Shown: positions 5,335-13,235 of the stretch, one piece after another | Numbering within the stretch: position 1 is the first letter of the stretch | Layout of the letters: the number at the start of each line of letters is the position of its first letter | From: a virus | Taxonomy: Duplodnaviria > Heunggongvirae > Uroviricota > Caudoviricetes | Strand: one strand, 5' to 3' | Length of the DNA: 33,311 bases | Virus record (IMG/VR): IMGVR_UViG_2778261498_000008 | Location: 1-33,311 of that record | Translations under genes and position numbers: made by a program | The notes under the pieces: model-generated | Seen by the model: the letters and a program-made list of their open reading frames with translations, nothing else | Databases searched by the model: none | Told to the model about the DNA's origin: nothing

Positions 5335-5724
5335 ATGATTGACGCTCATGACTTCACAAGATGGGTGCGCACACAGGACACCCGTCTGGCTCCCGTTCTT
5401 CAGGGATTATTTGATCTTTACATCCGTGGTCGTGACAACAGAGCACGCACTACAAAACCGGAGAATGCGGACACCCTTTATTTCACAGTAGACGACTGCT
5501 ACCGCGTGGACTTCACACCACACGGGCTGGCGTTGCACTGCCTGACACCACACGGCGAATCACTGCTGGCGTATTACGACTCCCCGGCCTCCGTATTCGC
5601 GGCAATGCTGGCGCATCGCACTGCTGGCGGGTGTGCCTCGCTGAGTGAATACACCGCTGAATTTAACCGCCTTTCCGCCATCTTCTCGCAGGAGTGGCAG
5701 CGCGTGACGGGATACCAGCCATGA
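5335..5724 (+). CDS. Hypothetical protein (129 aa) immediately upstream of, and coupled to, gene A
   Basis: Stop overlaps the A start (ATGA at 5721-5724). Confidence 0.5.
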   Translation: MIDAHDFTRWVRTQDTRLAPVLQGLFDLYIRGRDNRARTTKPENADTLYFTVDDCYRVDFTPHGLALHCLTPHGESLLAYYDSPASVFAAMLAHRTAGGCASLSEYTAEFNRLSAIFSQEWQRVTGYQP

Positions 5725-8528
5725 GCGAGTTTGCATGGAGCTGGAATGAACCACGGCCAGCCATTGATCCGGCCAGATTTACGGAGCGCAGGCAGGAAAC
5801 TGAAACCGACCTGCAACGCGCCATCCGTTACTACCTTGAGGCGGACAAAAGGGCACAGGAAGAACAGGAAGCGAAGGAAGAAGCCTTTTTCGCACAATCC
5901 GCCATGGGTAAAAAACTCATGGCATCCCTTGAGGAAGCCGGACAGCGTGAAAAGCTGGCACAGAGCATCATCAGTAAGCGCCGGGCAACAGAACAAGACC
6001 CGGTAGCCCGTGCCTTTGCCACACTAAAGGCACTACCTGTTTATCTGCGTGAACCACTGAGCCGCCACCTCTCTTTCCTGCGCAAAAAACAGGAAGCCGA
6101 TCGCCAGAAAGGTAAAAAGAGCTGGCAGGCGGAACGCTATGCACGCGGACCCCTGCGCAAAATATTCGAACGTCTGGATCGCACTGACGGACGCTGGCTG
6201 ACACCGGGTTATCGCTCCCTTGCCGGGCGCGAACGCCTGGACGATTTGCTTTACCTGCCGCAGCTCAACAAGCACCAGATACAGACGCTGGCCACCATGA
6301 CCGCGGCGATGTTCAGCAGCACCTTCGAAACACTCTGCGATGGCTTTGGTGCCAGAGATGGCGAGCTGACCATGGATGTAATGTTGAAGGCTTACCGGAT
6401 GCTGGCTCGTATCGCATTACGCCTGCACATCATGCCGCCACATTACGAAGCCCTGAACAAGAGCGAACCGGATACGGAACTGCTGCCGGGCGCAATCCTT
6501 CGCCTGACCTGTGCGGACTGGTGGAAACGCAAACTGTGGCTGTTACGTTGCGAGTGGAGAGAAGAACAACTCCGCGCCGCCTGTCTGGTTTCCAGAAAAA
6601 CATCGCCTTATCTGAGCCAGGACGCGTTAAGCGAGTTTCGCGCACAGCGCGAGAAAACACGCGATTTCCTGAAAAGTTTCATGCTGGAAAACGAAGACGG
6701 GTTCACGATTGATCTCGAGACAGTGTATTACGCGGGAGTAAGTAACCCGGTTCACCGTAAGGCAGAAATGATGGCCACCATGAAGGGGCTGGAACTTCTG
6801 GCCGAAGCCCGTGGTGACAAAGCGGTGTTTCTGACTGTCACCTGCCCGTCAAAATACCACGCAACAACGGAGAACGGTCATCCGAACCCCAAATGGAACG
6901 GGGCCACCATGCGCGACTCCAGCGACTACCTGGTTAACACGTTTTTTGCGGCGGTCCGCAAAAAACTGAACCGCGACGGCCTGCGCTGGTATGGCATCCG
7001 CACGGTGGAGCCTCACCATGACGGCACCGTACACTGGCATATGATGGTCTTTGCCCATCCGGAAGAAATCGACACCATTGTGTCCCACACCCGCGATATT
7101 GCCATTCAGGAAGATCGTCACGAGCTGGGCGATGATATTACTCCGCGCTTTAAGGCGGAGTATGTAGACGGCTCAAAAGGCACGCCAACCAGCTACATCG
7201 CCACCTACATCGGAAAGAACCTGGACAGCCGCGCCGCGGATGGCATCGACCCGAAAACGGGCAAACCACGCGTTGACCACGAAACCGGAAAATCAATGGC
7301 CGAGAGCGTGGAGCGCGCCATCGGCTGGGCGCGCCTTCACCGGGTCCGCCAGTTCCAGTTCTTTGGCATCCCCTCCCGTCAGGTGTGGCGTGAACTCCGC
7401 CGCCTTGCCAGCCAGATGGCACGCAACCCGGAAGGCCCGCAACGGCTGAAGGATGACGCAATGGATGCGGTACTCGCTGCCGCTGATGCCGGATGTTTTG
7501 CCACCTATATAGAGAAACAGGGCGGCGTACTTGTTCCACGCAAGGACTACCTGATTCGCACCGCCTACGACCTCGCCGATGAGCTGAACGATTACGGCGA
7601 ACAGAGCGTACAGATTTACGGGATCTGGTCACCACTCATCGGGGAATCCTCCCGTGTGTGCACGCATCCGGATAACTGGAAGCTGGTAAGACGTAAACCG
7701 GAAGCGGAAGACAGCGCCCGCGAAAATGGTTTTGACCTTCAGGGCGGCCCTGCCGCCCCTTGGACTCGTGGCAATAACTGTCCCCGTGTACAGGAAACGG
7801 ACAACAACGGGACAGAACAGCCGGAAGAACGGTCAGCACCGTGGCCGCAGCTCCCTGACGGCGTTGAAGTGAACGAATGGATGCGCTCACTGAAACGGCA
7901 CGAACGCCGGGCGCTGATGCGTTCGCTTCGGCTTCGTGACAAACAGGCAAAAAACAGCAGTGATGAAATGCAGAGCTGGACACAGAGCCGCAAACAGCAG
8001 CGGCCTTTGCCTGATAACCACGAATTACTCGCTAAAGAATGGCGGGAATCTGCCGAATCTCTCGGCCTGCATATCGGTGAACAGCAGATGCAGCACCTGT
8101 TACGGGGCGGCAGCCTGTACGTTGACGGCAGCATCATTGCACCGCAGGGATTTGAAATTGTACGCAAACCGGATACCCGCCCGGACAGCCGAATCACGCA
8201 GCTCTGGCAGCGCCTGAGCCGTAATCACGGCGTAAGCAGCACAGAGATCCGCCATAACCCGGTCGCCAGCTATCTGGAACAACTGGGGGCATCAGACCCC
8301 GAAGCCGCCGCACGTCTGGCATCCACACTTCAGCAGGACCAGAACACCATGAAAACCCCCGTTACCGTGCTTTCTGACATGTTGCGCGCCATCCGTGACG
8401 CAGAGCACGCACAGAGAATCAGTGAAACCACTGAGCGCGCCCACCGCAAAGCAGACCTGCTGCGGGGTAGCCTGACCAGTGGAAACAAAAAAACAGACAG
8501 AAACGGGATTCACAAATCCCGTAAATGA
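5721..8528 (+). CDS. A: Rolling-circle replication initiation endonuclease (P2 gpA family)
   Basis: Contains an HUH-type metal-binding motif (HWHMMVFAHP) and a tandem-tyrosine segment (SYIATYIGKN) typical of gpA-type nickases; sits after the early operon as in P2. ATG 5721 chosen over the upstream in-frame track start (5694). Confidence 0.9.
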   Translation: MSEFAWSWNEPRPAIDPARFTERRQETETDLQRAIRYYLEADKRAQEEQEAKEEAFFAQSAMGKKLMASLEEAGQREKLAQSIISKRRATEQDPVARAFATLKALPVYLREPLSRHLSFLRKKQEADRQKGKKSWQAERYARGPLRKIFERLDRTDGRWLTPGYRSLAGRERLDDLLYLPQLNKHQIQTLATMTAAMFSSTFETLCDGFGARDGELTMDVMLKAYRMLARIALRLHIMPPHYEALNKSEPDTELLPGAILRLTCADWWKRKLWLLRCEWREEQLRAACLVSRKTSPYLSQDALSEFRAQREKTRDFLKSFMLENEDGFTIDLETVYYAGVSNPVHRKAEMMATMKGLELLAEARGDKAVFLTVTCPSKYHATTENGHPNPKWNGATMRDSSDYLVNTFFAAVRKKLNRDGLRWYGIRTVEPHHDGTVHWHMMVFAHPEEIDTIVSHTRDIAIQEDRHELGDDITPRFKAEYVDGSKGTPTSYIATYIGKNLDSRAADGIDPKTGKPRVDHETGKSMAESVERAIGWARLHRVRQFQFFGIPSRQVWRELRRLASQMARNPEGPQRLKDDAMDAVLAAADAGCFATYIEKQGGVLVPRKDYLIRTAYDLADELNDYGEQSVQIYGIWSPLIGESSRVCTHPDNWKLVRRKPEAEDSARENGFDLQGGPAAPWTRGNNCPRVQETDNNGTEQPEERSAPWPQLPDGVEVNEWMRSLKRHERRALMRSLRLRDKQAKNSSDEMQSWTQSRKQQRPLPDNHELLAKEWRESAESLGLHIGEQQMQHLLRGGSLYVDGSIIAPQGFEIVRKPDTRPDSRITQLWQRLSRNHGVSSTEIRHNPVASYLEQLGASDPEAAARLASTLQQDQNTMKTPVTVLSDMLRAIRDAEHAQRISETTERAHRKADLLRGSLTSGNKKTDRNGIHKSRK

Positions 8529-8629: not shown

Positions 8630-9589
8630 ATGAAAATTCACATCGACGACGGCTCCACCAACATCAAGCTGGCATGGACTGAGAACGGCGAACGCCGCAA
8701 CGCCATCAGCCCGAACAGCTTCAAGTCGGAATGGTCTGCGCCGTTCGGTGGCACGCAGCCCGCGAACTACATGCTTGATGGCGTGCGCTATGGTTTTGAT
8801 CCGGTCAGCGATCGCTTTGTCCAGACGACCGACACGCAATACCAATACAGCGATGTGAATGTCATTGCCATTCATCACGCGCTGGTCAAATCAGGCATCA
8901 CGCCACAGGAGGTGGATGTGGTTGTCACCCTGCCACTGAGCGAGTATTTCGACACAAACGCACAGCCGGACATGGCCAACATCAACCGCAAAAAAGCGAA
9001 CGTTATGCGCCCGGTGGAGTACCAGAACGGCGAAGCATTCACTATCCGTAACGTGCGGGTTATGCCTGAATCCATTCCGGCTGGCTTTAAGGCACTGGCT
9101 GACATGAGTCCGTTTGAATCCCTGCTGATTGTGGATTTGGGCGGAACCACGCTGGATGTGGCAAAAGTTCAGGGGCAACTGGCAGGTATCAGCCAGGTGT
9201 TTTGCGATCCACACGTAGGCGTTTCTCTGATGGCCGATGCCGTACTGTCGGTGATGGCCACTAACGGTATGCGCACCAGTCACCACATCGCCAATACCAT
9301 TATCGAACATCGCCATGATGAAGCCTGGCTGCGCCAGCACATCCACAATGACGCGCATTACGCCAGCCTGATGGCGGTTATTCGTGAAAAGGAAGAAACA
9401 CTGAAACAACGCGTGATCCGCGCGCTGGCGGGTTTTTCGGGTTACGGGCGGGTGATGGTTGTCGGTGGCGGGGCGGAGATTGTGGCACCCGCTATCCGCG
9501 AAGCCTGCGGAGTTAATGCGAATTTCATCGCGGACGGGGTGCCACAGTTTGCTCTGGTTAATGGGCTGTACGCAATGGACAAGGAGTAA
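8630..9589 (+). CDS. parM: Actin-like segregation ATPase, ParM/StbA family
   Basis: N-terminus MKIHIDDGSTNIKLAW...ISPNSFK...YSDVNVIAIHHAL and later VMPESIPAG, LIVDLGGTTLDV and VMVVGGGAE closely parallel plasmid R1 ParM as recalled; AAGGAAAAG SD upstream. Confidence 0.85.
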   Translation: MKIHIDDGSTNIKLAWTENGERRNAISPNSFKSEWSAPFGGTQPANYMLDGVRYGFDPVSDRFVQTTDTQYQYSDVNVIAIHHALVKSGITPQEVDVVVTLPLSEYFDTNAQPDMANINRKKANVMRPVEYQNGEAFTIRNVRVMPESIPAGFKALADMSPFESLLIVDLGGTTLDVAKVQGQLAGISQVFCDPHVGVSLMADAVLSVMATNGMRTSHHIANTIIEHRHDEAWLRQHIHNDAHYASLMAVIREKEETLKQRVIRALAGFSGYGRVMVVGGGAEIVAPAIREACGVNANFIADGVPQFALVNGLYAMDKE

Positions 9590-9593
9590 ACCA

Positions 9594-9905
9594 ATGACGA
9601 CTCCAACCAGACGGATAAGTTTCTATCTGAAGCCCGCCGCCGTCAAGAACGAAGGCGAAGCATGCGCCTGGCTGGACAGCCTTACACCAGAAGCCCGCAA
9701 AAGCGGCCAACGCGTGGCTTTTCTGGCCGGGCTGGCACTTCTGAAAATGAATCCAGCAGAGGCTTACCGACTGGCTGCATGGGCTGACGATGAGGCGTTA
9801 TCGGTGACACAAACCAGGACAGAACGCCCCGTGTCACAGCCAGTACCAACCACACAGATAACCAGTCAGATGGCAGGGAATATCCGGGCATTATTTCCTG
9901 AATGA
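9594..9905 (+). CDS. parR: ParR/StbB-like centromere-binding adaptor
   Basis: 4 bp after the parM stop with AAGGAG SD; product shares the R1 ParR pattern as recalled (RRISFYLKP..., LDS, AFLAGLALL, C-terminal IRALFPE versus R1 ILRSLFPKE). Confidence 0.65.
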   Translation: MTTPTRRISFYLKPAAVKNEGEACAWLDSLTPEARKSGQRVAFLAGLALLKMNPAEAYRLAAWADDEALSVTQTRTERPVSQPVPTTQITSQMAGNIRALFPE

Positions 9906-9965: not shown

Positions 9966-10490
9966 ATGAAAAAATACGAATACATGCTAATGAAAGAAGC
10001 ACTGCGGGCTGGTCTGGCTCCCTGTCCTGTATCCGTAGAAGCTGTTGTTGGGAACACGATTTTCCGAACGCTGCGAAATCGCGTATCCGTGAAGATGATT
10101 CACCAACCACCCAAATCTACCAGCATGATCTATCTGCCGCTGCCCGAGGCTATCAAACTTATGCGTTCGCTGAAATTTGCGATTTGGATGCAGACACAAC
10201 TCAACAAAGCGGTGCAAAACACCTTCGTTAAGAAACTGATGCCGGAGCTTGCTGCCAGATGTGCAAAATGTACCAGACCCGCACTTCAATTTGATCTGTC
10301 ATTGATTCAACAAGCTACGGAGGCAGAACTGTACCGCCTGTCACCTCTCCATGATGCTCACACGGAAGCCTCAGAAATGTTCCGGCTCATGTTTCAATTT
10401 AATTTTGCCGTTCGACGCACACGCATTCAGGTCAATCGCATGATGCAGGCGCAGGAAGAGCTGACGCAACACAAAGGAGGCAACCAGTGA
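9966..10490 (+). CDS. Hypothetical protein (174 aa), accessory
   Basis: ATG 9966 with AGGAAA upstream; no recognisable family by eye. Confidence 0.5.
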   Translation: MKKYEYMLMKEALRAGLAPCPVSVEAVVGNTIFRTLRNRVSVKMIHQPPKSTSMIYLPLPEAIKLMRSLKFAIWMQTQLNKAVQNTFVKKLMPELAARCAKCTRPALQFDLSLIQQATEAELYRLSPLHDAHTEASEMFRLMFQFNFAVRRTRIQVNRMMQAQEELTQHKGGNQ

Positions 10491-10662
10491 GCAAAATTGA
10501 CTATCAGGCATTACGCGAGGCGGCACAAAACTATCAATCGACGCTGGCGTGGTATGAGGTTGACGCGGGCTAGTTTTGCCGCAAGGATAATTCGTTTCAG
10601 CGGGTGATTTTTTGCGCTATCATTCCGGCAGTGGTTCACGATTATTGGCAGGAAAGGCAATT

Positions 10663-11256
10663 ATGAGCAGTAAAAAAAATAAAATAACATCTATGGCCGC
10701 AGCGCTGGCGGTGGCTCTCGCCCCTGTTCCTGCCAGTAGCATTGTGCATCATGACTTATCAATCTCCCGGCACAGTACGTCTACGCTATCCCTCCAGGAC
10801 GTAAAGGATTCTGTGGCATACCTTCCTATTGATGAGGCCACCAGTTATATGCTTAACCTGGCTGATAGGATGAAGACACACAGGGCAAACCTTCGCATCG
10901 AATGGGAAGAAAAGCAGATCCCTATTATTCTGAAAAATCAGAAAAAAGAGACTCAGGAAGGGTTTGAAAGCCTTTTCCGTCATATTGCGGTATGTGCAAG
11001 TTTTGTCGAGGCTGCAAGGGTTGCGCTGAAAAGCGTACCTGAAAGTAACGCGGAACTGAGAAAAGAGATTGTCGCTTTTGCTCGTTCCGCTGCGACGCTC
11101 CGCTATACGATTGAAGATATTTTATCCTTCATTGAAAGCACGCATGTGCCGAAGAAAACTTCAGATGCTGATCTGGGTGTTACCGCCGATCAGGTTCGCG
11201 CACTTATCCGCAGTGAACATAAAAAGCTGGGCCTTAAAGATCCAACGTTCCATTAA
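10663..11256 (+). CDS. Hypothetical protein (197 aa) with signal-peptide-like N-terminus; putative partner of the downstream toxin homologue
   Basis: ATG 10663 preceded by AGGAAAGG; N-terminus MSSKKNKITSMAAALAVALAPVPASS has a positive n-region, hydrophobic core and a VPA-S cleavage-like site. The track ORF starts 51 nt earlier without an SD. The region is visibly more AT-rich than the phage backbone. Confidence 0.5.
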   Translation: MSSKKNKITSMAAALAVALAPVPASSIVHHDLSISRHSTSTLSLQDVKDSVAYLPIDEATSYMLNLADRMKTHRANLRIEWEEKQIPIILKNQKKETQEGFESLFRHIAVCASFVEAARVALKSVPESNAELRKEIVAFARSAATLRYTIEDILSFIESTHVPKKTSDADLGVTADQVRALIRSEHKKLGLKDPTFH

Positions 11257-11265
11257 GGCAGGGCC

Positions 11266-11646
11266 ATGATTAAAGTCTCTGTCCACAATGACATAGAACT
11301 CCCCGCAGTTGCTCGTAAATATGCACATGCTTTGCAGTCATGGAAAAACGGCGGATCTTTACCCTCAGTCTTTGGCAACGAAGGGCAGTGGGAAGATAGC
11401 GGGCGTCTTCGTGATTCTTTTGTTTTTAAGATTCACATTCGTTTACCTGATGAACAGCCGTGGCCTGCAAAGCTACCTGCCGCCTCGCGTAAATCAAACA
11501 GTTATCTTGTTTACTCCCGCCATTTCTTATATCCAGATAAGTATCAGCTAATCAGCATTATGACACCCAATGCGCATGAGTTAGCCCGTACATCCTACAT
11601 GGCAGAAATTGAGCGCAGAGCAGAAGAGTTCCAGTCTTCTTTTTGA
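11266..11646 (+). CDS. YafO-family toxin homologue (ribosome-dependent mRNA interferase family)
   Basis: 126-aa product matches E. coli YafO as recalled in several blocks: LPSVFGNEG vs LPDIFGRD; HIRLPDEQPWPAKLPAASRKSNSYLVYSRH vs HIHLANENNPFPPQLRQFSRTNDEAHLVYCQG; C-terminal LISIMTPNAHELAR...AEEF vs LLIAILKPEPHKLAR...AEAF. 9 bp after the upstream gene. Confidence 0.7.
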   Translation: MIKVSVHNDIELPAVARKYAHALQSWKNGGSLPSVFGNEGQWEDSGRLRDSFVFKIHIRLPDEQPWPAKLPAASRKSNSYLVYSRHFLYPDKYQLISIMTPNAHELARTSYMAEIERRAEEFQSSF

Positions 11647-11684
11647 GTTTTGCGACGACTATCTATCAATCCCTTACTAATCTG

Positions 11685-11718
11685 AAAAGCTGCCTTTTGA
11701 AGGCGGCTTTTCTTTCTT
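11685..11718 (+). terminator. Intrinsic terminator (AAAAGCTGCC / GGCGGCTTTT stem, T-rich tail)
   Basis: 10-bp stem (one G-U pair) with 7-nt loop followed by CTTTCTT; flanked by A-run and T-run so could act in both directions. Confidence 0.6.
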
Positions 11719-11737: not shown

Positions 11738-11764
11738 TGCACAATAGTGCACAAATTTGCACAA
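11738..11764. repeat. Three direct TGCACAA repeats phased at exactly 10 bp (11738, 11748, 11758)
   Basis: Read directly; helical phasing suggests a protein-binding array in the region expected to hold cos and packaging signals. Confidence 0.4.
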
Positions 11765-12188: not shown

Positions 12189-13235
12189 TCAGGATGTGGG
12201 CTGGGTATCTAACAGTGCGTAAGGGTTAAAGCGGATCACCTCTTCGCCAAGCCAGTCATTGATGTGCTTCATGGCCTCCATGACGGGCATCAGCTCGTTA
12301 ATTGCGTAAACCCGCGCGGCCTTCTCCACATCACCAAACGCACTTTTTTCGCCCGGCATCGCCCCCATCAGTTGCGGCGGAACGCGGTGCGCAGCCAGCA
12401 CATCATCACGGGATGCCGCCTTAACATTCATGAACTCATCCTTTGCGGTGATCTGCTGGAACGGCAAAATTTGCACCCCCTCTTTGCCCCCGTTGGGCGC
12501 ATGAATGAGCACGTTTTTAAACGCACCACCACCACGTGCCCCCTGTAGCGTTTCTTTCAGGGAGTCCATGCTTTCGCGGTTTACCTGCGCTGCACCGATG
12601 TAGATGATGCACCCGGCGTGGGATCCGTTGTCGTAGTACAGTTTTCTGAACATGTCCGCCGAATGAGAAAGGCTGGCCGAGAGTAATGCGCCAAGATATT
12701 CCGGCATGCCGTAGATTTCCTGGTTAATATCCGGATTCATCAGGTGGCACACTTTACCAGGGCGAAACTGAAACGCATCCTTGCCATCCTGCACATACCA
12801 CCATGATTCAAGATCGCTTCCGCGTCGCATGTATTTCGCCAGGGCGTGCCGTAATTTAAGCGGTTCGCCGAGCATATTGCTCCGAAGCTCAAGGAATGCG
12901 TTACCGAACACAAACCAGTCCAGCGCCAGCGCCGAGAAATCCTGCCGGGAAAGCAGCGGGTGCGGAATATAGCAGCCGAGCAATACATTGCGCTTAAAGT
13001 AAAGCGCAGACTGATGCCAGGACGTTTGCCGGGCAGCTCTTGCCAGACCGTACCAGTCCACCGGGGTTTCATACCACCGCCCGTTATCAGCACAGTACAT
13101 ATTGTCCAGCAGGTCATGCCCGGTCAGGCGATAAGGACCATCAAATGTGAATGCACTGAGCGATGATTCTTTCCTGAGCGCATCAGCGAGATCAATGCGT
13201 GAACTCATGCGCACTTTTTTATTTTTTCTGCTCAT
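12189..13235 (-). CDS. Q: Portal protein (P2 gpQ family)
   Basis: 348-aa product, leftward operon with the large terminase as in P2; length and position match gpQ. Confidence 0.9.
   Translation of the reverse strand: MSRKNKKVRMSSRIDLADALRKESSLSAFTFDGPYRLTGHDLLDNMYCADNGRWYETPVDWYGLARAARQTSWHQSALYFKRNVLLGCYIPHPLLSRQDFSALALDWFVFGNAFLELRSNMLGEPLKLRHALAKYMRRGSDLESWWYVQDGKDAFQFRPGKVCHLMNPDINQEIYGMPEYLGALLSASLSHSADMFRKLYYDNGSHAGCIIYIGAAQVNRESMDSLKETLQGARGGGAFKNVLIHAPNGGKEGVQILPFQQITAKDEFMNVKAASRDDVLAAHRVPPQLMGAMPGEKSAFGDVEKAARVYAINELMPVMEAMKHINDWLGEEVIRFNPYALLDTQPTS

Follow-up and report, generated by a model that had tools for sequence, protein, structure and literature searches.

The cassette and its place in the prophage

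The window analysed here is the whole 33,311-nucleotide stretch of IMG/VR record IMGVR_UViG_2778261498_000008, an almost complete P88-like E. coli prophage (Xuanwuvirus, P2-family). The prophage has an integrase at the left end of the window and is in the integrated state. Its replication gene A (gpA) lies at 5694-8528, and its portal gene (gpQ) lies on the minus strand at 12189-13235, with the terminase, scaffold and capsid genes beyond. Between gpA and the portal gene, according to the annotated context, is a cassette of ~1.2 kb that consists of two genes on the plus strand, a promoter-like block and a terminator. The first gene (10663-11256), here called A, starts with ATG and encodes 197 amino acids. 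The second gene (11266-11646), here called T, encodes 126 amino acids and is a YafO-family homologue of the RelE/ParE toxin superfamily. The lengths of both products and the 9-nt gap between the genes agree with the original prediction, which had been made from the window alone. Across the family, the spacing ranges from -4 to +14 nt, the two reading frames overlapping or nearly abutting each other. This arrangement of the frames suggests translational coupling of A and T.

That the pair has its own upstream spacer and terminator had also been predicted, and signals of both kinds were located. The leader region (10554-10662, plus strand) forms the left end of the mobile cassette, as homology with the copies in Mixta, Izhakiella and Serratia begins at 10554. 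Inside it lies a promoter-like block, TTTTTGCGCTATCAT (10609-10623, plus strand), with a -10-like TATCAT at 10618-10623. The block is unchanged in six loci from five genera (E. coli, Serratia, Klebsiella, Buttiauxella and Erwinia), while the remaining upstream DNA of those loci is unrelated. Since a strict sigma-70 scan returned no site, we infer the promoter function of this block. A Shine-Dalgarno sequence, AGGA (10650-10653, plus strand), precedes the start of A by 9 nt. On the other side of the pair, an intrinsic terminator-like hairpin occupies 11684-11712 (plus strand), with a 13-bp stem containing 6 G-C pairs and followed by the T-run TTTCTTCCTG. A 12-nt inverted repeat with one arm in the Shine-Dalgarno region (10643-10654) and the other in the PVPAS codons of A (10727-10738) was considered as a regulatory stem and dropped because the sequence of the Serratia homologue gives it no support. 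The GC content of the pair is 46.4%, compared with 53.7% for the window and 56.2% and 53.7% for the flanking phage genes, so the pair is indeed richer in AT than its surroundings, as had been noticed at the outset. RefSeq annotates an incomplete ead/Ea22-like pseudogene at 10487-10558. It ends where the cassette homology starts (10554), which suggests that the left junction is a recombination scar.

Directly upstream of the cassette, a plus-strand gene at 9966-10490 encodes a hypothetical protein of 174 amino acids (p174). This gene is itself variable cargo: it is found in 29 E. coli genomes, and most of its occurrences in viral contigs lack the YafO pair. Further to the left, partition genes of the ParM/ParR type occupy 8630-9905 (Pfam StbA_N, 274 bits, for ParM; Plasmid_stab_B, 85 bits, for the ParR-like protein). 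Partition genes of this type thus adjoin the cargo slot of an integrated P2-like prophage. In the catalogue of Rousset et al. (2022), this ParM/ParR-like pair occurs 4,592 times, more often than any other 'system' of the hotspot (PMC9122126). Just to the right of the cassette, the heptamer TGCACAA is present in three direct copies 10 nt apart (starting at 11738, 11748 and 11758; window positions 11738-11764). The repeats lie within DNA common to P88-like phages and are also present in the Serratia and Erwinia loci. They may be an array of sites for a protein that binds close to cos and the portal gene.

Compared by Megablast with E. coli chromosomes, a 1.5-kb region containing the pair is 99.7-99.9% identical. 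The whole region occurs in 7 of the 5,426 complete E. coli genomes, whereas its flanks occur in 1,395; the pair therefore fills a variable cargo slot that extends from gpA to the portal gene. Searching 50,697 GenBank phage records by tblastn with A and with p174 gave no match. The pair is absent from GenBank phage records, where P88-like phages match the conserved DNA to its right. The slot between gpA and the portal gene (gpA-gpQ) is a documented anti-phage hotspot of P2-like phages, and several untargeted cargo systems of this hotspot turned out to be defensive (PMC9122126). This same pair has already been catalogued: Table S5B of Rousset et al. (2022; PMC9122126) counts 24 occurrences of it under the name 'YafO_toxin' (system 123) and marks protein 1 as having a signal peptide. 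The entry has no functional annotation, and its name and sequence do not occur in the tables where that study reports the systems it tested (PMC9122126). The family to which A belongs is previously undescribed.

The toxin homologue T and its partner A

The YafO-like character of the 126-residue protein, which had been recognised from blocks of matching residues, is well borne out. T matches the Pfam YafO family (PF13957) with 95.5 bits against a cut-off of 25, and its residues 25-123 cover positions 2-100 of the 101 in the profile. Over 106 residues, T shares 34% identity with YafO of E. coli K-12. Its score against the NCBIfam equivalog PRK09885 is 59.4 bits, under the cut-off of 153, so T is a member of the YafO family and not the orthologue of the K-12 protein. 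From these comparisons, T is assigned to a separate subfamily of the YafO family. In alignments, H57, R75, P101, H104 and E120 are invariant in the T subfamily and in K-12 YafO; no experimental definition of the YafO catalytic residues was found in the literature searched. The AlphaFold2 model of T is confident (pLDDT 91.3) and has the predicted RelE-like alpha/beta fold. T has no leader, and its N-terminus is a confident beta-strand in the model. A Foldseek search with the model found no significant solved relative, and the PDB holds no structure of the YafO family. Compared with the RelE/ParE (BECR-fold) toxins HigB, YafQ, RelE and YoeB, T shares only 6-16% sequence identity and carries an extra N-terminal strand-helix unit.

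A is a very different partner from the one known for YafO. It shows no similarity to YafN and no Phd/YefM match, in agreement with what had been said of it from the sequence. A small YafN-like frame could have been overlooked in the region, but tblastn with YafN found none in any related locus. The small open reading frames of the region have no Pfam match. As to signs of an RNA antitoxin, there is no Rfam match and no tandem repeat in the region. Searches of A against Pfam, NCBIfam, PHROGs and PADLOC gave no match above threshold. No DNA-binding domain is recognised in A, the nearest match being a sub-threshold FaeA-like one (16.6 bits compared with 20.7). In a survey of E. coli, just 8% of the clusters found as partners of YafO-domain toxins were known antitoxins (PMC10790755), so that a partner other than YafN is unsurprising in itself. 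The A family is small and confined to Enterobacterales: clustering at 50% identity leaves 33 representatives in a set of 1.84 billion proteins, and a profile search gave 71 clusters. In the literature searched, there is no characterisation of this family, and no antitoxin with a signal peptide is reported.

According to the AlphaFold2 model, residues 1-51 of A are of low confidence and contain a short helix and a Ser/Thr-rich linker. They are followed by a three-helix bundle (residues 56-159, encoded at 10828-11139, plus strand; pLDDT 79-93), a flexible PKKT linker and a C-terminal helix (residues 175-188, encoded at 11185-11226, plus strand). A Foldseek search of the PDB with this model gave nothing but generic helical bundles (E > 0.3), and a profile search of PDB sequences with A found nothing. 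The best-conserved segments of A are at its two ends, the N-terminal LAPVPA motif and the C-terminal helix with its VxALIxAEHKKLGL pattern. I182, E185 and G190 do not vary in any alignment, even in the most divergent (A4), and H186 is invariant in alignment A3 and nearly so in A4. This conservation makes the C-terminal helix our candidate for the toxin-binding element, which it probably is. A divergent clade of the A family bears the NCBI name 'iron-sulfur cluster assembly scaffold protein SufA' (P0094, P0115-P0116, P0118, P0120-P0121, P0124-P0125, P0130, P0132-P0133, P0137, P0139-P0140 and P0144; loci L028-L031 and L037-L039). The proteins with this name have 203-208 amino acids, a leader and no precomputed Pfam domain, and their genes precede YafO-like genes. 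The annotation seems to be an error that has been propagated.

The N-terminus of A resembles a Sec-type leader, as had been noted from the sequence. Codons 1-24 (10663-10734, plus strand) encode MSSKKNK, with a charge of +3, and then ITSMAAALAVALAPVPA, 17 uncharged residues that end in APVPA within the LAPVPA motif and are followed by SS. V at position -3 and A at position -1, just ahead of SS, fit a Sec signal peptidase I site. With simple rules that asked for a positively charged n-region, a stretch of 14-22 uncharged residues and a small residue at both -3 and -1, we found this architecture in 115 of the 118 unique members of the A family. Phobius called a signal peptide for exactly the sequence of A (Rousset et al. 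2022, Table S5B; PMC9122126). As the N-terminal flank is positive and the C-terminal flank neutral to acidic, the folded domain of A is expected in the periplasm. The predicted export of A is topologically at odds with a classical cytoplasmic antitoxin.

The segment may, however, do more than serve as a generic leader. No part of A is better conserved than LAPVPA, in which A20, P21 and V22 are invariant down to 23% identity, and the motif is held at the protein level while synonymous codons vary. Two distant members of the family that have no signal-peptide features keep the motif in recognisable form: P0095, with an acidic n-region, has SLAPVPV, and P0099, without a hydrophobic core, has MAPAPEA. 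In addition, A and p174 have an N-terminal module in common, which consists of GLAPCPVS, a spacer of ~30 residues and YLPLPEA (hmmsearch, 19.5 bits; hhalign, 82%, E 1e-5), a weak match to a shallow p174 family. The N-terminus of p174 is charged and has no hydrophobic leader. Taken together, the conservation of LAPVPA, the module in p174, and P0095 and P0099 argue for a role of this segment beyond that of a leader.

Linkage, loss and transfer of the pair

We gathered 67 loci from genomes, viral contigs and assemblies by way of either protein and scanned them with profiles of both families. Wherever T of this subfamily is intact, A lies directly upstream of it (58 of 58 loci, 47 unique pairs). 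The intact pairs occupy diverse contexts: gpA-portal hotspots in E. coli and Erwinia, the neighbourhood of P2-like integrase genes in Serratia, Buttiauxella and Klebsiella, and the end of a prophage in Serratia marcescens. They also occupy chromosomal sites, between rne and sbcB (where NCBI labels the toxin cluster 'Gammaproteobacteria') and between menE and katA in Proteus. The only T without A is a truncated one (L026), and in one further locus (L027) the end of the contig cuts away the upstream region.

The loss of T is a different matter. At the menE-katA site of Proteus mirabilis, T carries a 309-bp internal deletion in 23 of the 24 contigs, while A is intact. About 24 codons of T are left in these copies (L037, L038), and one contig has the complete pair (L039). 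In another locus (L022), A is kept beside a T that is broken by a stop codon. A further member of the A family, P0102 (L035, 5001-5600; L036, 241-840), has an acidic N-terminus instead of a leader. No YafO-like gene follows P0102, which adjoins hicA/hicB in a P2-like gpA-portal slot.

In all 46 comparisons made, A has diverged further than T, with identities that go down to 23% for A and 51% for T. The identities of the two proteins are correlated (r = 0.97), which indicates that the pair is inherited as one unit. The DNA of the cassette is 90-96% identical in prophages of Mixta mediterraneensis, Izhakiella australiensis and Serratia marcescens, and the toxin proteins of these copies (L009, L010, L011, L041-L043 and L066) are 98-99% identical, while the flanks are unrelated. 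Because a nearly identical cassette is surrounded by prophage DNA that does not match, these sequences indicate a recent transfer of the cassette alone between genera. A pair that is mobile, self-contained and asymmetrically lost has, in sequence comparisons, the signature expected of a toxin-antidote module.

Function of the pair and comparison with known systems

We propose, with moderate confidence, that the cassette is a toxin-antidote module in which A neutralises T by its C-terminal helix and the leader makes cytoplasmic A short-lived. T, as a YafO-family member of the RelE/ParE toxins, would most likely cut mRNA on the ribosome. A would be the dedicated antidote of T and represent a new protein family, in which a hydrophobic N-terminal leader, a Ser/Thr-rich linker and a three-helix bundle precede the C-terminal helix, the probable binding site for T. 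The leader would probably limit the lifetime of A in the cytoplasm, by way of either Sec export or degradation. When the synthesis of A is halted by phage-induced shut-off or because the element is lost, free T would arrest translation, leading to abortive infection or to retention of the prophage. Against this proposal, predicted export would separate the folded domain of A, in the periplasm, from an RNase in the cytoplasm; A lacks a DNA-binding domain with which to regulate its own operon; and no PADLOC defence model exists for either protein. The original prediction of a non-canonical toxin-antitoxin pair stands in part. The strict linkage, the asymmetric loss and the faster divergence of A are in its favour, whereas predicted export conflicts with a cytoplasmic antitoxin. 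Its companion idea, abortive infection, has one source, the position of the cassette in the P2-like defence hotspot.

The conflict over the location of A can be approached in several ways. The N-terminus may be no export signal but a conserved interaction or degradation motif, and A would then be a cytoplasmic and nearly ordinary type II antitoxin of a new fold, for which LAPVPA could be a protease degron or a partner-binding peptide. This would lift the topological problem. It would also explain why LAPVPA is the most conserved segment while its codons vary, as true signal peptides usually drift more, and it agrees with the recognisable motif in P0095 and P0099 and with the p174 module, which stands behind a charged, non-hydrophobic N-terminus. 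We nevertheless consider it unlikely, given the full leader in nearly all members of the family, the Phobius call (PMC9122126), the weakness of the p174 match within a shallow family, and the fact that no tool matched a known degron family. Alternatively, export and neutralisation could be parts of one process. The precursor of A would neutralise T in the cytoplasm while Sec continuously drains A away, so that secretion would replace proteolysis as the cause of the short life of the antidote. A stop in A synthesis, such as phage shut-off, would free T, and changes in Sec or the membrane caused by infection could shift the balance between A and T. We regard this version as quite unlikely, and if true, such an antidote would be a new link of a cytoplasmic toxin to the state of the envelope and of translation. 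At the far end stands the view that there is no classical toxin and antidote at all. A would be truly secreted or periplasmic and do a job of its own, perhaps superinfection exclusion or envelope modification by the prophage, and T a co-transcribed RNase that is controlled otherwise. Prophage accessory genes often code for envelope proteins, the export signal of A is conserved, A has neither a DNA-binding domain nor similarity to any antitoxin, and the survival of intact A where T is missing, as seen in most Proteus mirabilis contigs and one further lineage, is compatible with a function independent of T. However, the invariable linkage in overlapping or nearly abutting frames, the lack of any intact T without A among the 67 loci, the divergence of the two proteins in step and their joint movement into non-phage chromosomal sites would be unexpected for independent functions, which makes this view very unlikely.

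A separate question is what the toxin-antidote module that we favour would be for. It might be a post-segregational killing (addiction) module that stabilises the element instead of a phage defence. The cassette lies downstream of the ParM/ParR-type genes, and partition genes together with a toxin-antitoxin pair are the classical layout of plasmid maintenance; chromosomal copies exist without phage context, and no defence HMM matches the pair. On the other hand, the prophage has an integrase and is integrated, and the slot is the documented anti-phage hotspot in which several cargo systems are defensive (PMC9122126). The position in the hotspot favours defence, while the ParM/ParR neighbours and the chromosomal copies fit addiction. 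We consider addiction in place of defence possible, if somewhat unlikely, and the two functions are mutually compatible.

In the standard model of toxin-antitoxin modules, a labile cytoplasmic antitoxin represses its own operon. An antidote family with a conserved secretion-type leader and no DNA-binding domain is a misfit to this model. If A is exported, the cassette would have a new control of toxin release; if it is not, the invariant LAPVPA would be an unrecognised interaction or degradation motif. Toxin-antitoxin modules are increasingly seen as phage-defence units, and their toxins swap antidotes. Like generic type II modules, the pair has the bicistronic order with abutting or overlapping frames and is lost asymmetrically, but A has no DNA-binding antitoxin domain for autoregulation. 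The export signal of the protective partner is reminiscent of periplasmic immunity proteins, such as the Tsi proteins of type VI secretion systems and entericidin A/B. In those systems the toxin too acts outside the cytoplasm, whereas T has no leader and belongs to a family that targets mRNA on ribosomes.

With the other gpA-gpQ cargo of P2-like phages, including old, tin and others, the pair has in common the slot, its variable occupancy and a short length (PMC9122126). It is not among the hotspot systems that were cloned and tested in that study (PMC9122126), and PADLOC matches no defence model to A or T. The closest comparison is with yafNO of E. coli K-12. Both toxins belong to PF13957, are 34% identical and have the His, Arg, Pro and Glu positions in common, and in both operons the antidote gene comes first and the toxin gene second after a short gap. 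The partners are unrelated: A has 197 amino acids compared with 97 in YafN, has no Phd/YefM domain and carries a Sec-type leader. Whereas yafNO is part of the dinB SOS operon, the pair described here is a mobile cassette in a prophage hotspot.
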